Positions 2,476 to 57,747 of a DNA stretch of 64,000 nucleotides are shown one piece after another. The stretch lies in the NCBI GenBank assembly GCA_023248595.1, contig JAHFEG010000002.1, positions 51,825-115,824 of the forward strand. The letters are read 5' to 3'. Below the pieces are notes generated by a model that was not told the origin of the DNA, did not search any database, and was given only the letters and a program-made list of their open reading frames with translations. The stretch is from Myxococcales bacterium. GTDB taxonomy: Bacteria > Myxococcota > UBA727 > JABDBI01. The translations under genes were made by a program, and so were the position numbers. The first letter of the stretch is position 1. Each line of letters starts with the position of its first letter.

Positions 2476-5400
2476 ATGACTATTCATCTAGGAAAAGGTA
2501 ATTACATCAATGGCCAGTTTATTAATTCTGGCGAAAAAGAAATTATCAGTATCAATCCCGCTTCTTACTTTTCGCCCGTTTTTAAAAGCATAACATCAGT
2601 TGCTCATGTCGACACAGCAGTCAAATCTGCAAACCTTGCGCTGCGGTATTGGTCTTCTTTAGACACAAATGATCGCATCAGCTTTTTAATGCGCCTCAAA
2701 GAAGCTTTCGTCAAAAAAGAAAAACAGATGGCCCATGCGATTACCAGCGAAATGGGCAAAATTTTAAGTGAAAGTTTATCGGAAGCAAAAAATTTAAGTG
2801 CACGCATCGAGCTTATGGCTAACCAAGGTATCAAGCGTGTTGCAAACGAAAAACCACCGGGTATTTTAGGGGAAACACGCTACCACGCTCAAGGTGTCCT
2901 CTCTATTTTAGGACCTTATAATTTTCCTGCCCATCTTGTGAATGCCCATGTCATTCCAGCGCTGATAACCGGCAATACCGTCGTCGTTAAATTTAGCGAG
3001 ATTTGCCCATGGGTGGGAGAAATTTATGCTGAATGCATCCATGAAGCCAATTTTCCTGCTGGTGTTTTTAATTTGGTACAAGGTGGAGCAGATATTGGTA
3101 AAGCTTTAGCGAAACATCCTTTAATTCGTGGCATTTTATTTACAGGAAGTTACGCCACAGGTCGTTCTTTAGCCGAATCTGTCCTCGATGAACCACATAA
3201 AATTTTAGCTTTAGAAATGGGTGGCAAAAACATTGCCGTGGTTTTAAAAGATGCCGACCTCTACCAAGCTCTAGCAGAAATTAGCCAAGGCGCTTTTTTA
3301 ACAACTGGCCAACGATGCACAGCAACCAGCCATGTTCTGGTAGATAAAACCATCGCTAGTCGCTTTATTAATTCTCTCGTTGCCATCACCAAAAGTTTAA
3401 AACCCGGCGACCCAACACATGCAAAAACTATTTTTGGTCCCCTGGCAAGCCAAGAAGCCAGAAATCGGTTCAGTGGTCTTTTAAAAAATGCGACTACTTC
3501 TTGTGAAGTTTTAGTAAAAAGCCAAATGTTCGATGGGGGCGCTTTTGTTACCCCATCTCTTCACCTATTAAACGCTAAAAAAGCGCCTGGCTACCTCGAT
3601 ACCGAGCTTTTTGGACCAGACGTCTGCATTGAAATCATCGACGGCATTGAAGAGGCCATTGAGCGTACCAACCAAAGTGCGTATGGTTTATCCAATGCTG
3701 TTTTTACTGCAAAAAAATCGGCATTTGAACAATATTACCAACAAACACGCTCTGGTGTTTTAAATTGGAACAGAAGCACCAATGGCGCCTATGGAGAACA
3801 GCCATTTGGTGGCGTGGGTAAAAGTGGAAACCAGCGCGCAGCTGGCATCGACGCTGTTCGCTATACGACCTTTCCTGTCGCTGTAAACTATTTAGAATAT
3901 GGCCAAACGCAGTTACCTTTCAACATGGTCACTTTACTCGAAAAAGAAAAAAAGAACCTTGATATTCCTTTCTCAACACTAGTCACACGTCATGCCCTAG
4001 AAGAAATGTTGGAAAATTATCAGATTCCTATCGAAGACGTGCGTGGCGCATCCATATTGCTACCATTGCATTTCATCAAAAAGCTTTCTTTTCAAAATAA
4101 ACCAATTGATGAAATACATCTTATCGAATCATTGAAACCTTACGTTAGCCTAGAAGAAAAAAATTGGATCATTACCCTTCCTGAAGCAGAATATCTAAAC
4201 ATATTTTTAGATATCATGGATGCTTTTTTAAAAAAGTTACATAATGAAAATTTCGTCCATTTAATTCAACCTATTGCCTCTGAAATTCATATCCCAACTT
4301 CTGAAAAATTGCCGCGTTCAGCAGCAATGCTCCGTCGGCTTTATCGCAATGATTTTTTGCCCAAGGAAAAGAAAAATCCTGTTATCGACCTACGTACTTC
4401 GAAGGGCCCTTATCTAGCATCTATCGATGAGGATCCGCTGGTGATTTTTGATGCAGCCAGCCAAATTGCTTCACTGGGATTAGGCTTTCAAGCAGATCCC
4501 TATCTCAAAGCGCTAACCGAAGACAACTTAACAGCATGCCTGTTAGCCAATCAAGAAGACACGCCAGAATCTAAAATATGGATTGAAAAATATTCTCAAT
4601 TGTTGTTGCAACAAACTAGCCCAAAAATGAGCCATGTCAATTTCACGTCTGCAGGCGCAGAAGCAAATGAAAAAGCATTTGATCTTTGCCGGCTAAACGG
4701 ACCTGGTGGACGCCGAATCATTGCTTTTCAAGGTAGTTTTCATGGCCGTACATTGATGGCCTTGCAGGCAACTTATAATCCCCAAAAGCGGGCTCAGTTT
4801 GAGTTCACAGGTCACCAAGCCACCTTCATTCCCTTTCCCAAACGCCCAAATTTTGAAGAGGATCCTGAAATCACCGACGAATGGGTTGCTTGCTGGTCAA
4901 GGGCTGAGAGCCCTTACGTGCCACCTGATGACCTGTTGCTGCGATCTGAAATTCAGTCTCTCGAATGCCTTAAAAGCGAAATTGAAAAAGGAAACATTTG
5001 TGCTGTCATCATTGAACCCATGCAATGTGAAGGCGGTGACAATTATGCCACAGCTCGTTTTTTTAATGGCCTTCGTGCTTTGACGCGTGCCCTTCAAGTA
5101 CCGCTCATTTTTGACGAGGTCCAAACAGGGTTTGGCCTGCTTGGTCCTTTTTATGCTCATAGCGCATTTAAACTGCGCGATGCTCATGGCAACTTAGACG
5201 GACCCGACTGCATAACGCTTGCAAAAAAAGCACAACTCGGCGTCTGTTTATCAAATTGGCCAGATACCAGACCTGCGACAGCACATATTTCACAAATTAT
5301 GAGAGGATATTTGCAAGCCCAAGCGATACTGGACAGAAAATTGTTTTCACCTCATCTGAAGACAGAGATAGAAAAAAAAATCGGAATTTTAAAACAGAAA

Positions 5401-7428
5401 TTTCCTAGCTTTGTTTTTAATTTACGCCATCAGGCATATGCTTTTGCCTTTGATCTTCCATCTCACAATCATGCCATGCAACTCGTCAACCAACGCTTCT
5501 ATCGTGGTTTCATGGTTTATATTGCTGGTGAAAAGACCGTGCGTTTTCGTTTTAATCTGTCAACAACAATCAAAGAATTAAACGTCTTTTTTGAAAACCT
5601 AAGTCAAGCTTTGCATTTTTTAAGTGACCACCAAAATGAGACTGCTCCCAATTGGATAGTGCCTTCACCAAAGCCCCTAGTAAAAACATTTTCAATTGAA
5701 GAACAAACAAACGAAGACCTGTTTACGATTGAAGTTTTGACACAGGATTTATGGTCTTCCTACCAAGATCAAATCAAAAATTTAGAAGACGCGACTTATG
5801 AACTAAATCGTCGCGATTCAATGAATTTTTTACATGAATTTATTGCGCAAAAAGATGGGCTTGGTCTGATACTCACGCAACAATCCACAGAAGGTAATCG
5901 AATTTTAGGCTTTGCCATTGGCGGACCACTTGAACACAGCCAAATAGATGGGCCTTGGCAAGATAAAATGAGAGATCACTGTAATACTTTTTATTCTGCT
6001 AATATTGTCGTCAGTCAAGAATTGCGAAAGCAAGGTTTTGGATTCAAATTAAAATCTGCGCAAATTCACCACGTGCGATCCATGAAAAAACCAGATGGTG
6101 CTTATCGCTATGATTTTATGACAGGTCGCAATCGTGTCGGTTTCACACCGGAGATTAGCCGTATTAATCAATTTTTTGGTGCGCAGACTGTCGATATTTA
6201 CCATCGTCAGTATGGTGAGGCTAACGCTGAAGCGCTTTATTATCGAATCCCTTTAAGAAAGCCTCAGCTCGTCTGCATCAAAGGCACAGATTCAAGTTCT
6301 CCTCAAATCATCGATTGGTCTGCTTCTATTCAAGCACCCTTAGGGTCCTGTTCTCCAGAAATACTAAAAGAGATTATAAATGGCGCTTTTACCTCGGTAG
6401 TCGGCACCAAACTCACACTCTCCAATTGGGTTACACCTAGCATTGTTCGCTATACTGAGCTTCTAAGGCAGCTCGCGCCGAATTCTTGTCAACATGCCTA
6501 TTTTACATCTGGTCGAGACGAAGTTGTCGATAAAGGCCTTCGAGCATTAAGAGTCCACAGGCCTGCTGGCGATGTCGTGATTGGATTACAGCGCCAGTAT
6601 GTTGGACATACCACTGCTGCAGCGAGAAGTTTAAGTGATGAAAATAATTACCAAAGTCCTTTTGCCTGGTTTGATTGGCCAAAAGTTCAACATCCAGTTG
6701 AAACGAGCGACGAGACAAGCTTAGCAGAAATCAGAAGCCAAATCAGTCATTATTCCTCAGAACGGATCTTGGGAATCGCCGTTGAGCTCATTGGAGAAAA
6801 AAGTGGCTACGTTGTTTCAAATAATTTTTTAGATGGCTTAAATCAAATTCGGCAAGAAACGTCTATTCCATTGATTTTTGTTGAAACAGCCTCGGCCTTA
6901 GGTCGAAGCGGTAGCACAATTTTTAAAAGCGACAGCCTCATGGTTAAACCTAACATGGTTTGGTGGTATGCTGGTGCTCAACTGGGACATGTATTCGTCG
7001 ATCATGACTACTACGTATCCACACCGCTCACACTTATTTCTACCTGGGATGGTGATGAAATATCAATGAAGCGTACCTATCAACATTTGCGCGTTGCTCA
7101 TGAATGTCTCAAAACCAAACATGCTGCTTACTTCGAAAATCTACTTTCCCAAATGGATTGGTCTTGGCGACGACATGGCCAAGGACTATGGCATGTACTT
7201 ACCATGAAAAATCAAGAACAATGTCAAGAAGTCTTAAAAAAGGCCGCTGCTCTCGGTTTACAATTAGGCAAAAGCGGCAATCATCGTATTGTCATTAATC
7301 CTCCTATTAATGTATCTAAAGAAGAAATGCATCGTGGACTTGAGATTTTCAACCATGCAATATCCCAAACCTCCTATACTCGAACTAGACAGCACACACC
7401 CTCGCCTCTGTGGACAGATTCATGGTGA
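2476..7428 (+). CDS. 1650-aa multidomain enzyme: AstD-like aldehyde dehydrogenase, class-III PLP aminotransferase, GNAT N-acetyltransferase, and a second aminotransferase-like fold without the Schiff-base Lys
   Basis: Aldehyde dehydrogenase motifs: GPYNFPAHLVNAHVIPALITGNTVVVK, LEMGGKN and the catalytic Cys in GQRCTATSH. Aminotransferase 1: AGAEANEKAF, IIAFQGSFHGRTL, LIFDEVQTGFG and the Lys in TLAKKAQLG. GNAT motif A: ELRKQGFGFKL. Second aminotransferase-like fold: LIFVETASALGRSGS, with AGAQLG where the PLP-Lys is expected. Confidence 0.7.
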   Translation: MTIHLGKGNYINGQFINSGEKEIISINPASYFSPVFKSITSVAHVDTAVKSANLALRYWSSLDTNDRISFLMRLKEAFVKKEKQMAHAITSEMGKILSESLSEAKNLSARIELMANQGIKRVANEKPPGILGETRYHAQGVLSILGPYNFPAHLVNAHVIPALITGNTVVVKFSEICPWVGEIYAECIHEANFPAGVFNLVQGGADIGKALAKHPLIRGILFTGSYATGRSLAESVLDEPHKILALEMGGKNIAVVLKDADLYQALAEISQGAFLTTGQRCTATSHVLVDKTIASRFINSLVAITKSLKPGDPTHAKTIFGPLASQEARNRFSGLLKNATTSCEVLVKSQMFDGGAFVTPSLHLLNAKKAPGYLDTELFGPDVCIEIIDGIEEAIERTNQSAYGLSNAVFTAKKSAFEQYYQQTRSGVLNWNRSTNGAYGEQPFGGVGKSGNQRAAGIDAVRYTTFPVAVNYLEYGQTQLPFNMVTLLEKEKKNLDIPFSTLVTRHALEEMLENYQIPIEDVRGASILLPLHFIKKLSFQNKPIDEIHLIESLKPYVSLEEKNWIITLPEAEYLNIFLDIMDAFLKKLHNENFVHLIQPIASEIHIPTSEKLPRSAAMLRRLYRNDFLPKEKKNPVIDLRTSKGPYLASIDEDPLVIFDAASQIASLGLGFQADPYLKALTEDNLTACLLANQEDTPESKIWIEKYSQLLLQQTSPKMSHVNFTSAGAEANEKAFDLCRLNGPGGRRIIAFQGSFHGRTLMALQATYNPQKRAQFEFTGHQATFIPFPKRPNFEEDPEITDEWVACWSRAESPYVPPDDLLLRSEIQSLECLKSEIEKGNICAVIIEPMQCEGGDNYATARFFNGLRALTRALQVPLIFDEVQTGFGLLGPFYAHSAFKLRDAHGNLDGPDCITLAKKAQLGVCLSNWPDTRPATAHISQIMRGYLQAQAILDRKLFSPHLKTEIEKKIGILKQKFPSFVFNLRHQAYAFAFDLPSHNHAMQLVNQRFYRGFMVYIAGEKTVRFRFNLSTTIKELNVFFENLSQALHFLSDHQNETAPNWIVPSPKPLVKTFSIEEQTNEDLFTIEVLTQDLWSSYQDQIKNLEDATYELNRRDSMNFLHEFIAQKDGLGLILTQQSTEGNRILGFAIGGPLEHSQIDGPWQDKMRDHCNTFYSANIVVSQELRKQGFGFKLKSAQIHHVRSMKKPDGAYRYDFMTGRNRVGFTPEISRINQFFGAQTVDIYHRQYGEANAEALYYRIPLRKPQLVCIKGTDSSSPQIIDWSASIQAPLGSCSPEILKEIINGAFTSVVGTKLTLSNWVTPSIVRYTELLRQLAPNSCQHAYFTSGRDEVVDKGLRALRVHRPAGDVVIGLQRQYVGHTTAAARSLSDENNYQSPFAWFDWPKVQHPVETSDETSLAEIRSQISHYSSERILGIAVELIGEKSGYVVSNNFLDGLNQIRQETSIPLIFVETASALGRSGSTIFKSDSLMVKPNMVWWYAGAQLGHVFVDHDYYVSTPLTLISTWDGDEISMKRTYQHLRVAHECLKTKHAAYFENLLSQMDWSWRRHGQGLWHVLTMKNQEQCQEVLKKAAALGLQLGKSGNHRIVINPPINVSKEEMHRGLEIFNHAISQTSYTRTRQHTPSPLWTDSW

Positions 7429-8419
7429 ATCGCTACGCAATCAGGTACGAACCATGGCACAGATTCGCCTTGATCTCACGTGTCAAGAAACCGCCTTTTT
7501 TTCCAAAGAACAAGTTCTGAAAATTGCCAGGGCCCATCTGCCTATCTTAAAGAATTTTGATGAAGATCTTTATTTGGAATTGTTAGGTATTGCAGAAGGA
7601 AGTCGGCTTACTCCCGAAGAGATTGTGGTCCTTAATCACTACACAGACCTTCGCGATTTAAATCCAAGCAATAATCATCCCGATAGTGATGACACAAAAG
7701 GTTGTTCCGTTATTTATACCAAAGCACCAAGCGGTCCTTTGCTTGGACAAACTTGGGATATCGACAGCTCTGCAATCAATCATGTGGTGATTTTAAAAAT
7801 AAAAAATATTGAAAATAGCACATTGCTCTTCAGCTGCGCAGGCTGTCTGGGCATGACAGGGATGAATACAAATGCTGTAGGAATTTGTATCAACAATCTA
7901 AACAGCACCGATGCGCAAATTGGAATCCTCTGGCCTGCCCTTGTCCGAAAAGTCCTCAAACAATCAAGTGCTCAATTGGGACGCGATCTGATTTTAAGAG
8001 CCCCGCTTGGTTCTGGTCATCACTATTGCGTTGCAGATACAAAAGATTTTTTTGGTATTGAAACCAGCGGAACCAAAAAGAAAATAACCCAACAGGGAAG
8101 TCAAAAAACACATTTCCATACCAATCATTGTCTTGATGAAGAGATGAAATTAACCCACACCGTCAAATCCACCTCCACGACGTTTTCACGCTACCAAGAA
8201 CTGGAACACCGACTCCCTCATACAACTCTTTCTTCCGCGGAAGATATCTATGAACTCCTAGGCCATGTATCGATTGCTCCAAAACCAGAAACGACTGGCA
8301 CTGCAACCTGCGGCGCGCTCGTCATGGATTTAAAAGCACAAACAGCCCTGGCCTGCATGGGACCACCTTCTCAAAATATTTTTAATAATCTACCTCTGCA
8401 TTTGAGTTTAGCGAGATGA
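7355..8419 (+). CDS. Peptidase C45 / acyl-CoA:6-APA acyltransferase-like Ntn hydrolase
   Basis: N-terminal ...LELDSTHPRLCGQIHGESL... is followed by a Gly-Cys self-processing site (DTKGCSVIYTK) typical of C45 Ntn hydrolases. The start is uncertain: the ORF begins at 7289 in another frame and overlaps the upstream gene. 7355 is the first Met preceding the conserved region. Confidence 0.5.
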   Translation: MQYPKPPILELDSTHPRLCGQIHGESLRNQVRTMAQIRLDLTCQETAFFSKEQVLKIARAHLPILKNFDEDLYLELLGIAEGSRLTPEEIVVLNHYTDLRDLNPSNNHPDSDDTKGCSVIYTKAPSGPLLGQTWDIDSSAINHVVILKIKNIENSTLLFSCAGCLGMTGMNTNAVGICINNLNSTDAQIGILWPALVRKVLKQSSAQLGRDLILRAPLGSGHHYCVADTKDFFGIETSGTKKKITQQGSQKTHFHTNHCLDEEMKLTHTVKSTSTTFSRYQELEHRLPHTTLSSAEDIYELLGHVSIAPKPETTGTATCGALVMDLKAQTALACMGPPSQNIFNNLPLHLSLAR

Positions 8420-21207: not shown

Positions 21208-21777
21208 TTAAGCACGTTCAACATATTGCCCAGTGCGGGTATCAATCTTTACTTTATCGCCTTCATTTACAAACAATGGCACCTGCACCGTATAACCTGT
21301 TTGCATTTTTGCTGGCTTGGTCGCGCCACTCACAGTGTCCCCTCTAACGGCGGGAGCACATTCAGCGATTTGTAGAACAACATGGTTAGGAATTTCAATA
21401 TTCACGGCCTTGCCCTTATAAAACAAAAGCGACACCGGCATGCTTTCTACTAAAAAGTGGGCTGCGTCACCCAGCACTTTAACCGGCACTTCAAACTGAT
21501 CATACGATACTGGATCCATAAAATGAAAGATACCATCAACCATGTAAAGAAATTGAACTTCGCGTTCATTTAGATCGGGGCGTTCAACTTTGTCGCCGGA
21601 ACGAAATGTCGGGTCTGTCGTCATGCCTGTAATTAGATTCTTAAGCCGGGTGCGCACAATCGCAGCACCTTTCCCAGGCTTATGATGTTCAAACTCCACA
21701 ATCTCGTAAGGCTCATTTTGAAACATGATACGAAGCCCCCGACGAAAATCTGAAGTGGAAAACATGAAAACTCCCAA
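21208..21777 (-). CDS. efp: Elongation factor P
   Basis: The KPGKG loop (...EHHKPGKGAAIVRTRLKNLITG...) carries the modified Lys. The three-domain length is ~185 aa. The true start may be the second Met, at 21765. Confidence 0.85.
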   Translation of the reverse strand: MGVFMFSTSDFRRGLRIMFQNEPYEIVEFEHHKPGKGAAIVRTRLKNLITGMTTDPTFRSGDKVERPDLNEREVQFLYMVDGIFHFMDPVSYDQFEVPVKVLGDAAHFLVESMPVSLLFYKGKAVNIEIPNHVVLQIAECAPAVRGDTVSGATKPAKMQTGYTVQVPLFVNEGDKVKIDTRTGQYVERA

Positions 21778-21867: not shown

Positions 21868-22824
21868 TCAGTCTTGATCACAGACAACTTGGCATTTAAA
21901 ACCACGTTCTTTATCTAGAGCACCCGCAGTAAATACACGGATAATTTTGCCTGTCTGACTGTAATTGAGACCTGTAACCTGTAAAACAGCATGAAATGCA
22001 TCTTGCCAAGGAACTTTGTTCAATTGGATGCTCACTCGACCAACAATATTATTGCCAAAAACAATATTGCTTCCACTCGCTTTTGCCATAAAACGTAAAA
22101 CATTACGAAGCTCTGCATCACGAAAATCAATAGAGATTAATTTCTGGCTAAGCGGCGATGATGATTTTAAAATTTGCTTTTTCTTCACCACTTCTGGCAG
22201 TTGGCTAATCGGTGCACTATTTTGGGAAACAGGAGCAACCAAAATTGTATCAGATCTCAAAGAAGATGCAGTGAAAACAATTTGAAGTCCCAAATTGTTT
22301 TGCACAACCTGATAATTGGGAAGTGCCTGACTAAAGAAATCGATGACGACACGTGTTTTTTCTGCATGTGTCCCTATGCGAATATTTCCAAACTTGAAAC
22401 GTTGTAGCTTTTTGAGCCTCTTAGTTGAAGATACATCTAACAAATCAACAACTAAGCGCACAGGATTTTCTAAATTTTGTGTTTCAAAACGCAGGGCAGA
22501 GTTTTTCACAATTAAATTTAAAGTTACCCCAGTCTTTGTTTCGCTAGACTGAATTGCTATCAACAAATTTTTGGCTGATGAATTTCGCGAAGTAATCGGC
22601 ACCATCAAAGGCGGAGAAGGAACGGTTACCATAGGCGCAGGGGCAAGATTAGTCTGCGTATCTGGCTCTGGAGAATTGACAGGTTCATTGATTGCAAAAT
22701 TAATCGGCATAATTGGGGCTTGTTCATCAGACTGCAACAAGATCGAGCGCTGCCCAAAAGTCGAGATTGGTAGGAAAACTACAAAAGCGATTACCCAGAT
22801 ATTCACTCGCTTAATTCGATTCAC
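21868..22824 (-). CDS. PilQ N-terminal-like protein (AMIN-like + secretin-N domains) lacking the secretin beta-barrel
   Basis: It has a signal peptide and an AMIN-like segment (NPVRLVVDLLDVSS...RIGTHAEKTRVVIDF). A Secretin_N-type segment follows (ISIDFRDAELRNVLRFMAKASGSNIVFGNNIVGRVSIQLNKVPWQDAFHAVLQVTGLNYSQTGKIIRV). The ORF ends ~20 aa later, and there is no room for a secretin domain before efp. Confidence 0.55.
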   Translation of the reverse strand: MNRIKRVNIWVIAFVVFLPISTFGQRSILLQSDEQAPIMPINFAINEPVNSPEPDTQTNLAPAPMVTVPSPPLMVPITSRNSSAKNLLIAIQSSETKTGVTLNLIVKNSALRFETQNLENPVRLVVDLLDVSSTKRLKKLQRFKFGNIRIGTHAEKTRVVIDFFSQALPNYQVVQNNLGLQIVFTASSLRSDTILVAPVSQNSAPISQLPEVVKKKQILKSSSPLSQKLISIDFRDAELRNVLRFMAKASGSNIVFGNNIVGRVSIQLNKVPWQDAFHAVLQVTGLNYSQTGKIIRVFTAGALDKERGFKCQVVCDQD

Positions 22825-26248: not shown

Positions 26249-26339
26249 GACAATAAGACACCTTTTCTATAACACTTGAAAAAAAATATCCCTCTAAAAA
26301 AGAGAGATATCTAAAATAAATTATTTCTATTTTATAACT

Positions 26340-26948
26340 TTAAGCAGCTTTGCGTTTTGCTTTTTTACGTGCTGCCGGCTTTTTGGCAGGTGCTTTCGCC
26401 TTGGCTTTCTTTTTGGCAGGCGCTTTATGCTTTTTGGCAGGCGCTTTTGCTTTAGCCTTAGCTTTCACTTTGCCGCCTTTTTTCTTGACGACTTTCTTTT
26501 TACCTTTTGCTTTTTTCTTGACTGCAGCTGCTTTTTTCTTGACTGCAGCTGTTTTTTTCTTGACTGCAGCTGCTTTTTTCTTAGCCGCTGCTGCTTTTTT
26601 CTTAGCCGCTGCCTTTAGTTTTGCTGCTGCTTTTTTCTTTTTAGCAACTAATTTCTTTTTCAATAAAATTGCACGCTGAGCTGCTGTTTTACGTCGGCGC
26701 TTGCCCTTTCTTGCAGTACCGCCACGGCTAGCTTTTACACGTGAAATGTCGCCTTGTTTATCTACATAATAAAGATAATTTTCATCACGTTTCAGGTCAG
26801 TTTTTTGAACAACTTCAGGATTTTCACCTTTCTTTTTCTTTTCTCCGCCCCGAACCATCTTTGCTCGATAAATATTCAAATTTTTATCAAGATAATATAA
26901 CCAACCTTTTTTACGTTCCACGCCTGTGCGTAATACTTTTTCAGCCAT
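26340..26948 (-). CDS. Histone H1-like Lys/Ala-rich nucleoid-associated protein with two N-terminal WLYY/YLYY repeats
   Basis: The C-terminal ~110 aa are AKKK/AAAKKK repeats (compare Hc1/Hc2, AlgP and BpH1 tails). The N-terminus has two ~35-aa repeats (KKGWLYYLDKNLNIYRAKMVRGG and ENYLYYVDKQGDISRVKASRGG). The start is set at the ATG, 26948, which is 9 nt after AAGGAG. The ORF track begins 9 nt further upstream, at 26957. Confidence 0.6.
   Translation of the reverse strand: MAEKVLRTGVERKKGWLYYLDKNLNIYRAKMVRGGEKKKKGENPEVVQKTDLKRDENYLYYVDKQGDISRVKASRGGTARKGKRRRKTAAQRAILLKKKLVAKKKKAAAKLKAAAKKKAAAAKKKAAAVKKKTAAVKKKAAAVKKKAKGKKKVVKKKGGKVKAKAKAKAPAKKHKAPAKKKAKAKAPAKKPAARKKAKRKAA
26511..26613. repeat. 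Intragenic tandem repeat (three 21-nt units, then two variant ~20-nt units) encoding the KKAAAVKKK-type tail
   Basis: TTTTTTCTTGACTGCAGCTGC occurs three times. Two copies of TTTTTTCTTAGCCGCTGC(TGC) follow directly. Confidence 0.8.
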
Positions 26949-27253
26949 TGTATCCATCTCCTTAAATCCGGATGAAGCTCCGGCGAGCTCGTTGCAAAAG
27001 TAGCTAAAGCCACCCCGCTTTCAATCTCTATCCTCTCGCAACAGCACACCTCTGGTCGATTCATGTCTTGTTTTTCTTTTTAGAGTAAAGCTTTCGCTTT
27101 TATCGACATCCGTATTCTTAACTTCTTTATAATTTTAACGATAAATAAAAATGCAAATTTGCAAATAAATATAACTAGTTATGCTTAAATTTTAATTAAA
27201 TTAAATCCTTTTTACCTCCTCTTTTTTTTTGATTTCTATCGAACAACACACCA

Positions 27254-57144: not shown

Positions 57145-57747
57145 ATGATAGATACTAAATTGATTATTGTTGCCTTTATTGCTGTTTTATTTATTTTTAT
57201 CATAGCGGAATTTTTAATCCCTGAAAAATACAGAATGGTATTCAAATACGGATTAAGAAATTGCTCTAGCGTTTTCTATTTTATTGTATTGATTTTTATT
57301 TTCAATGATCGAAATAACGCAAGCATCGCAGAAGCAAGAGATCGTGTAATTAAATTAAATAGTTTTACCAATGATGCCATTATGAATTTATTAAACACAT
57401 TGCGACAAGAACCTAAAGAATTAAAAGGAATTTATAACGAAATTTTTGAAGACAAACCTGAAAATGGCAACCCTTTGACATATCATGAGAACTTATTTTT
57501 ATATCAAGTATTTACAACTTTTTTAAATTTATACCGTGACCATGCTGTCGCAGGAAAAGAAGCCGCTTCTCATTATGCTAATCTATATAGTTCATGGGAT
57601 AATTTTATCATGCGTGTTTTGCGCTCTTCTAAAGTAAGGAAATACTGGAATGATAACAAAAGCATGTTTGACAGTATCGACTTTATCCAATTTATAGACA
57701 ATAAACTGCCAGCGAAAATTTCCACTAATAGAAACTACCCACCATAG
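57145..57747 (+). CDS. Hypothetical membrane-anchored protein (AT-rich gene)
   Basis: 200 aa with two N-terminal hydrophobic helices. It is very AT-rich and has no motifs. Confidence 0.35.
   Translation: MIDTKLIIVAFIAVLFIFIIAEFLIPEKYRMVFKYGLRNCSSVFYFIVLIFIFNDRNNASIAEARDRVIKLNSFTNDAIMNLLNTLRQEPKELKGIYNEIFEDKPENGNPLTYHENLFLYQVFTTFLNLYRDHAVAGKEAASHYANLYSSWDNFIMRVLRSSKVRKYWNDNKSMFDSIDFIQFIDNKLPAKISTNRNYPP

Follow-up and report, generated by a model that had tools for sequence, protein, structure and literature searches.

Most of what is known about the chromatin proteins of bacteria and archaea comes from cultured model organisms. The chlamydial histone-like proteins Hc1 (HctA) and Hc2 (HctB) are small, Lys/Ala-rich, H1-like bacterial proteins that condense the nucleoid, Hc2 being built of repeats. 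Lys/Ala/Pro repeat extensions have been gained independently by HU proteins with H1-like extensions (mycobacterial HupB/MDP1 and Streptomyces HupS), by Streptomyces DdbA, and by CarD of Anaeromyxobacter, the latter being a Myxococcota case of a DNA-binding domain extended by repeats. Pseudomonas AlgP and PhaF have H1-like tails, rich in lysine, alanine, and proline, that bind DNA; in AlgP, the tail is also a mutational hot spot (PMC9239181). Here we describe a gene from a 64,000-nt stretch of a Myxococcales bacterium genome (assembly GCA_023248595.1, contig JAHFEG010000002.1, positions 51,825-115,824; hereinafter, the window), whose product is, judging from its sequence, a candidate bacterial nucleoid protein carrying an H1-like tail on a different, uncharacterized head. 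The gene is real, and it encodes a very basic protein (202 aa; computed isoelectric point (pI) 11.1 and net charge +69) that consists of a small folded head and an H1-like Lys/Ala tail. The features of the coding region, in window coordinates, are as follows.

26340..26948, minus strand: coding sequence, 202 aa plus stop, from the list of open reading frames (ORFs); stop codon at 26342-26340
26844..26945, minus strand: head repeat 1, aa 2-35, AEKVLRTGVERKKGWLYYLDKNLNIYRAKMVRGG, delimited by internal-repeat BLASTP, AlphaFold2 strands, and the family consensus
26718..26819, minus strand: head repeat 2, aa 44-77, PEVVQKTDLKRDENYLYYVDKQGDISRVKASRGG, delimited in the same way
26643..26717, minus strand: linker, aa 78-102, TARKGKRRRKTAAQRAILLKKKLVA, predicted to be partly helical (AlphaFold2 helix 92-100, model numbering)
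26343..26717, minus strand: Lys/Ala tail, aa 78-202, 125 aa, delimited by composition
26511..26615, minus strand: five in-register 21-nt units encoding (K/A/T)AA(A/V)KKK, found with Tandem Repeats Finder (TRF)
26409..26453, minus strand: second 21-nt tandem repeat, ~2.2 copies, encoding KAPAKK(H/K), found with TRF

As the original prediction held, the tail is similar to those of H1 and Hc1 in composition: it contains ~42% Lys, 32% Ala, and ~3% Pro (four residues), with no Asp or Glu (values calculated on a 126-aa slice starting at residue 77, the annotated tail being aa 78-202). Its proximal part follows a proline-free heptad pattern, and the distal part contains KAPAKK units. The in-frame 21-nt DNA repeats, also noticed at the outset, were recovered by TRF as an array at 26508-26603 (21-nt unit, 4.6 copies, 92% matches, no indels, score 157); in the coding register, the five units read, in order, KAAAKKK, AAAAKKK, AAAVKKK, TAAVKKK, and AAAVKKK. 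Tandem repeats in the tail coding sequence are far beyond chance. The last three of the five units show a single base difference in 63, and this near-identity points to recent duplication, not merely to selection for composition. Ala/Lys peptides are in general helix-prone, and the proximal tail with its AAAVKKK heptads is probably helix-prone too, unlike H1 and AlgP, whose tails are proline-rich. Two mirror ORFs rich in Phe, Leu, and Ala lie opposite this region on the plus strand (26350-26679, 109 aa, and 26427-26618, 63 aa); they are not genes but artefacts produced by the repetitive Lys/Ala codons.

The head contains two repeats, each of ~34 aa, with a period of ~42 aa; segments 2-35 and 44-77 were aligned by BLASTP with 42% identity over 38 aa (E=8e-10). 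It belongs to a large unannotated family, whose members usually stand alone. The first 102 residues yielded 190 protein matches, the best one with E=2.4e-38 at 83% identity; none of the matched proteins had a Pfam domain, and every named one was called "hypothetical." A profile search in a database of 1.84 billion representatives retrieved 1278 of them (clustered at 50% identity) at E<=1e-3 and 518 at E<=1e-10, and at least 585 loci were confirmed in species-representative genomes. The best 80 of these loci all come from metagenome-assembled genomes (MAGs), with bacterial labels Myxococcota/"Deltaproteobacteria," Omnitrophota, Marinimicrobia/Fidelibacterota, Nitrospirota, Planctomycetia, Elusimicrobia, and Bdellovibrionales, and archaeal labels Woesearchaeota, Nanoarchaeota, and Methanosarcinales. 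Inspection by eye of the archaeal contigs, which are long, showed archaeal-type neighbors such as a Hef-like helicase and an Mre11-like protein, and bacterial and archaeal members share ~55% identity. The helicase adjoins the family gene in locus L040 and the Mre11-like protein does so in L064, again by eye. In two Woesearchaeota loci, L064 and L048 (~6350-7790), three genes form a conserved group downstream of the family gene, encoding a GTPase-like, a 127-aa, and a Zn-ribbon protein, as assigned by eye.

Most members are 73-83 aa long and end in a short run of Arg and Lys, the consensus being MAxKVAKAGVKRxKGYLYYLDKQGDVSRAKMARGGxKGGxPEKVxKxGVKRExGYLYFIDKQGDVSRAKMVRGG. Family statistics were collected from 78 loci (152 repeats, 33-aa unit). 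The heads alone have a median pI of 10.2 and a median net charge of +12, and unit positions 2, 5, 9, 10, 20, 26, 28, and 31 are occupied by Lys or Arg in 62-100% of the repeats. Near-invariant positions of the unit are G13, aromatic 14, L15, Y16, D19, K20, G22, and M29, and the conserved aromatic strand follows the pattern G-[YFW]-L-Y-[FY]-[ILV]-D-K-x-G-[DN]-[VI]. The linker motif is conserved in the closest relatives alone, being present in P0004, P0005, and L001 and missing from L081 and L082.

An AlphaFold2 model of the head was built on a 29-sequence alignment (mean predicted local distance difference test (pLDDT) score 81, predicted template modeling (pTM) score 0.61). It has 3+3 strands (E6-9, E19-23, E29-33 and E48-51, E61-65, E71-75), followed by a short helix that opens the tail. 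The head is hence predicted to be an all-beta folded module of ~9 kDa, formed by two three-stranded beta-meanders. No significant structural neighbors of the model were found; weak matches were mostly to beta-propeller blades (SMP-30/gluconolactonase, WD40, a fragment of a nine-bladed propeller) and also to tandem WW domains. These matches parallel the sub-threshold YWTD and DUF5050 signals of the sequence searches described below, and the head unit of the model may be blade-like. In nature, the repeat unit also occurs in six or more copies per protein, namely in P0130 (354 aa) and P0121 (886 aa).

At a threshold of E<=10, neither the whole protein nor the head matched the Hc1, HC2, Linker_histone, or CW_binding models of Pfam, which agrees with the original prediction that the head is not the Hc1 globular domain; the best noise for the head was DUF5050 (E=0.015) and CcbP (E=0.016). 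The tail alone matched no Pfam model at E<=1, Hc1 and HC2 included. No NCBIfam or PADLOC match to the head was obtained, and PHROGs yielded weak, non-significant matches alone (E 0.006-0.04). In searches of Protein Data Bank sequences, both single-sequence and profile-based, the head retrieved solely YWTD blades of LRP6 (E ~0.05), and the tail, through its proximal proline-free heptads, only weak matches to designed coiled coils (E ~0.03). Nothing similar was found by tblastn in phage and plasmid collections. Literature searches, motif strings included, produced no paper on this head family; the matches of "LYFIDK" concerned a human topoisomerase I peptide only and are a coincidence.

Tail length varies between related genomes, while the heads stay identical or nearly so. 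Basic tails of at least 30 aa occur in 22 of the 78 species loci and those of at least 60 aa in seven, mainly in the Myxococcota/"Deltaproteobacteria" and Bdellovibrionales branches; the pooled composition of the long tails (22 loci) is 36% Lys, 22% Ala, 19% Arg, and 9% Thr. The tail described here ranks second in length among the 78 loci, only that of L001 being longer (145 aa, same cut). L001 is the syntenic orthologue, with holB on one side and pilD-pilN-pilO-efp on the other; its head is ~79% identical, and its tail has a like composition but an unrelated sequence, KKPAAKKAH repeated 4.6 times (27-nt unit). The repeat unit of the tail differs by lineage: 27 nt in L001 and L004, 30 nt in L082 and L063, 18 nt in L006, 9 nt in L072 and L073, and 21 nt here. 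The heads of L072 and L073 are 100% identical, and their tails are 50 and 53 aa long; tails of 86 and 66 aa were found in L006 and L007, and those of L013, L017, and L026 comprise 54, 52, and 49 aa. A metagenome scan with a degenerate pattern, aimed at repeat counts within the same population, returned relatives alone (L081 and L082), whose heads are identical to each other and ~92% identical to that of the window gene (by-eye estimate); RKPAA(K/R)KKAA is present in ~2 copies in L081 and ~4 in L082. The length-variable tail of the original prediction was thus borne out between related genomes (L072/L073, L081/L082, L006/L007), and slipped-strand mispairing would be the process behind it.

In our interpretation, the protein is cytoplasmic and binds polyanions, most probably DNA, without sequence specificity, being a candidate nucleoid-associated protein whose H1-like tail evolves fast; we assign this a probability of about 0.55. 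The cytoplasmic location is suggested by the N-terminus, MAEKVLRTGVERKK / MAEKVLRTGVERKKGW, in which neither a signal peptide nor a hydrophobic segment was seen when the sequence was read by eye. Direct binding of nucleic acid, most probably of DNA, is suggested by the conserved basic positions, the family-wide basic tails, and the known role of AlgP/PhaF/H1-type tails. The head would dock on nucleic acid via about eight conserved basic positions per repeat and the conserved aromatic strand, and the tail would neutralize phosphate charge and bridge or condense DNA, like the C-terminal domains of H1, Hc1/Hc2, and AlgP/PhaF. In-frame tandem duplications and deletions of 9-30-nt units, for which we infer slippage as the mechanism, would have built up the tail and would keep altering it; through such events tail length and charge would shift quickly between lineages, the head remaining constant.

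A broader version of this interpretation is more tentative, and we place it somewhat short of an even chance. It holds that the head represents a previously unrecognized, widespread class of all-beta chromatin proteins, distributed over many uncultured bacterial phyla and DPANN and other archaea, to which H1-like tails were added repeatedly in lineages of the Myxococcota/Bdellovibrionales type, their length being tuned by gain and loss of repeats.

The informative functional clue is domain fusion, ParB included. P0228 consists of ParB_N and HTH_ParB domains with a C-terminal head, and its source MAG also carries the stand-alone L004. In P0248, the head is followed by ParB_N (3e-16), and the same 409-aa gene was found in two independent assemblies. 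P0181 has a cysteine-rich region resembling, by eye, that of P0228, and then the head. P0221 (metagenomic, 452 aa) joins the two-repeat head to a region that matches PDC-S18, a candidate defence protein of PADLOC (E=2e-12). ParB-domain proteins with the two-repeat head at either end were also seen in L086 (2268-4322), L084 (3821-5050), and L085 (1452-2681); the L084 copy lies amid many small ORFs with no Pfam match, which may indicate a mobile element.

Several points weigh against a nucleoid protein. The neighborhoods of the 78 loci (Pfam census of 106 flanking genes) are of the housekeeping type, are not conserved across phyla, and lend no functional support, and no operon partner was found among them. 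Neighbors are conserved within phyla alone (aspartate dehydrogenase, sigma-54 regulators, acetate kinase, LptF/G, uvrA, holB, and others); uvrA adjoins the gene in 12 loci, and holB in the window and L001, which we judged too weak to use. The head also occurs in membrane-anchored or multi-repeat proteins (P0121, with a transmembrane segment ahead of the repeats, P0171, and P0130) and may be a general binding module. Literature searches yielded no experimental datum on any family member. Finally, the strong positive charge would equally bind RNA, polyphosphate, or acidic lipids.

Such a charge would suit a small basic protein associated with RNA or the ribosome (a ribosomal RNA chaperone or an accessory ribosomal protein), the tail then being analogous to the basic extensions of ribosomal proteins. 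The family is indeed small, very basic, and highly conserved, with ~55% identity between bacterial and archaeal members, and its short C-terminal R/K runs look like ribosomal-protein tails; however, the gene lies in a ribosomal-protein cluster in none of the 78 loci, the distribution across phyla is patchy, matches to eS19 are weak and non-significant (E ~0.7-1), and the fusions involve ParB and not RNA-binding domains, so that we regard this role as unlikely. A tether similar to AlgP and PhaF, with the head bound to a polyphosphate or storage granule, a membrane, or a partner protein and the Lys/Ala tail anchored to the nucleoid or binding polyphosphate, appears distinctly unlikely. Very similar K/A/P repeat tails serve this purpose in AlgP and PhaF (PMC9239181), and the head is present in the membrane proteins P0121 and P0171, but most family members lack a long tail and are still strongly basic, which agrees better with a head that itself binds polyanions than with one holding a separate cargo, and no granule-related genes are located nearby.

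The likeness to propeller blades raises the possibility that chains oligomerize (for instance, three chains giving six blades) into a protein-interaction ring, in which charge is secondary. This we consider very unlikely, as every blade similarity is non-significant, the model has three strands per repeat and not four, and AlphaFold2 modeling of the six-repeat P0130, run as a test of ring closure, gave pLDDT 40, i.e., an unusable model; such a ring would in any case be compatible with nucleic-acid binding. The original prediction had compared the WLYY/YLYY repeats with cell-wall proteins binding choline, glucan, or peptidoglycan, a reading that we abandon as highly improbable. The likeness is limited to a superficial motif (an aromatic beta-hairpin, then a Gly/Asp turn), and one weak PHROG endolysin match covers a 21-aa stretch (E=0.024), whereas no CW_binding-related Pfam match was obtained at E<=10, a signal peptide is missing, the head is strongly basic with two repeats alone at a ~42-aa period in place of ~20-aa repeats in many copies, the protein has pI 11 and a tail of the DNA-binding type, and the fusion partners are cytoplasmic ParB domains. 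An ordinary homologue of Hc1/Hc2 or linker histone was rejected almost outright: tail composition alone speaks for it, whereas the Hc1, HC2, and Linker_histone models matched neither the complete protein nor its head and tail taken separately, even at permissive thresholds, and the predicted head is all-beta.

The ORF as listed, 26340-26957 on the minus strand, would encode 205 aa, with the upstream ATG at 26957 adding MDT to the N-terminus. The signals flanking the gene are listed below.

26958..26963, minus strand: Shine-Dalgarno-like AAGGAG, by sequence reading
26284..26312, minus strand: terminator-like hairpin and T-run directly 3' of the stop codon, by consensus scan (pattern match alone)
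27168..27195, minus strand: weak sigma-70-like promoter match TTAAAA-16-TATATT, ~220 nt 5' of the start, by consensus scan

The AAGGAG box lies 9 nt ahead of the ATG at 26948 and abuts that at 26957 without a gap, and the N-termini of all close homologues read MAEKV or MSEKV; therefore, the real start is likely 26948, giving the 202-aa protein. The arrangement suggests a monocistronic gene with its own ribosome-binding site and terminator-like hairpin. A leader of ~220 nt (26958-27195, minus strand) separates the promoter-like site from the start codon; it includes a locally G+C-rich stretch at ~26975-27060, compared with 40% G+C in the genome. The leader has no Rfam match, is not conserved in L001, and its predicted folding is not exceptional (z=-1.3); an Rfam scan of the whole window gave zero RNA elements.

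The window consists of ordinary chromosomal DNA and comes from a diderm bacterium whose G+C content is 40%. The upstream neighbor, transcribed divergently, is holB (DNA polymerase III delta'), and the downstream gene encodes a HEAT-repeat protein, after which come pilD, pilN/O-like ORFs (recognized by translation), pilP, an N-terminal fragment of PilQ, and efp. The PilQ-like ORF (21868-22824, minus strand, 318 aa) has AMIN, STN, and N0 domains and no secretin domain, and efp (21208-21777, minus strand) follows it directly. The order pilD, pilN, pilO, then efp is also found in L001. Elsewhere in the window, the ORF 2476-7428 (plus strand, 1650 aa) combines aldehyde dehydrogenase and class-III aminotransferase domains with ~700 further residues that were unmatched. 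Two adjacent ORFs, 57735-61976 and 61933-63942 (minus strand, 1413 and 669 aa), both matched the Met-zincin domain DUF4953 weakly and may be one split or frameshifted gene.

The finding is of value mainly because it brings to light a large family of small basic beta-repeat proteins that is abundant in the barely cultured Omnitrophota, Marinimicrobia, and DPANN archaea and lacks any annotation. If the family does bind DNA, a new fold would be added to the set of nucleoid proteins, and the protein described here would provide another independent case of an H1-like tail on a DNA-docking module, with a bearing on the origin and evolution of linker-histone-type tails. The repeat-encoded tail also offers a natural length series for relating tail length to DNA compaction.

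In comparison with known systems, the protein shares with Hc1 and Hc2 its small size and a Lys/Ala-rich H1-like region, and differs from them by an unrelated head, predicted to be an all-beta two-repeat domain, that has no match to the Pfam Hc1 and HC2 models. With AlgP and PhaF it has in common a folded N-terminal domain followed by a tandem-repeat Lys/Ala(/Pro) tail of 125-195 aa, whose repeat region is mutable (PMC9239181); the net charge is +55 in AlgP and +69 here. The heads of AlgP and PhaF, however, are alpha-helical and their tails are made of proline-rich 4-aa units (KPAA), whereas this protein has a predicted beta head and a tail of 7-aa units, AAAVKKK and KAPAKK(H/K), with ~3% proline and a proximal heptad part that is probably helix-prone. 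Eukaryotic H1/H5 likewise join a globular docking domain to a long Lys/Ala-rich C-terminal domain of similar charge density, a match of composition alone; there is no winged-helix domain here, no Linker_histone match, no S/TPKK motifs, and little proline. The blades of YWTD, SMP-30, and DUF5050 proteins show a similar motif pattern (aromatic strand, Asp, turn, second strand, Gly) and a ~42-aa period, and weak matches to them recur, but all are below significance, and the present head has two three-strand repeats and is strongly basic. Compared with HupB/MDP1, HupS, DdbA, and CarD, the folded partner of the tail belongs to a different, unannotated family. For the stand-alone members of ~75 aa, the nearest functional analogy is provided by Cren7 and Sul7d (Sso7d/Sac7d), the small (7-8 kDa), basic, all-beta, lineage-restricted chromatin proteins of crenarchaea.
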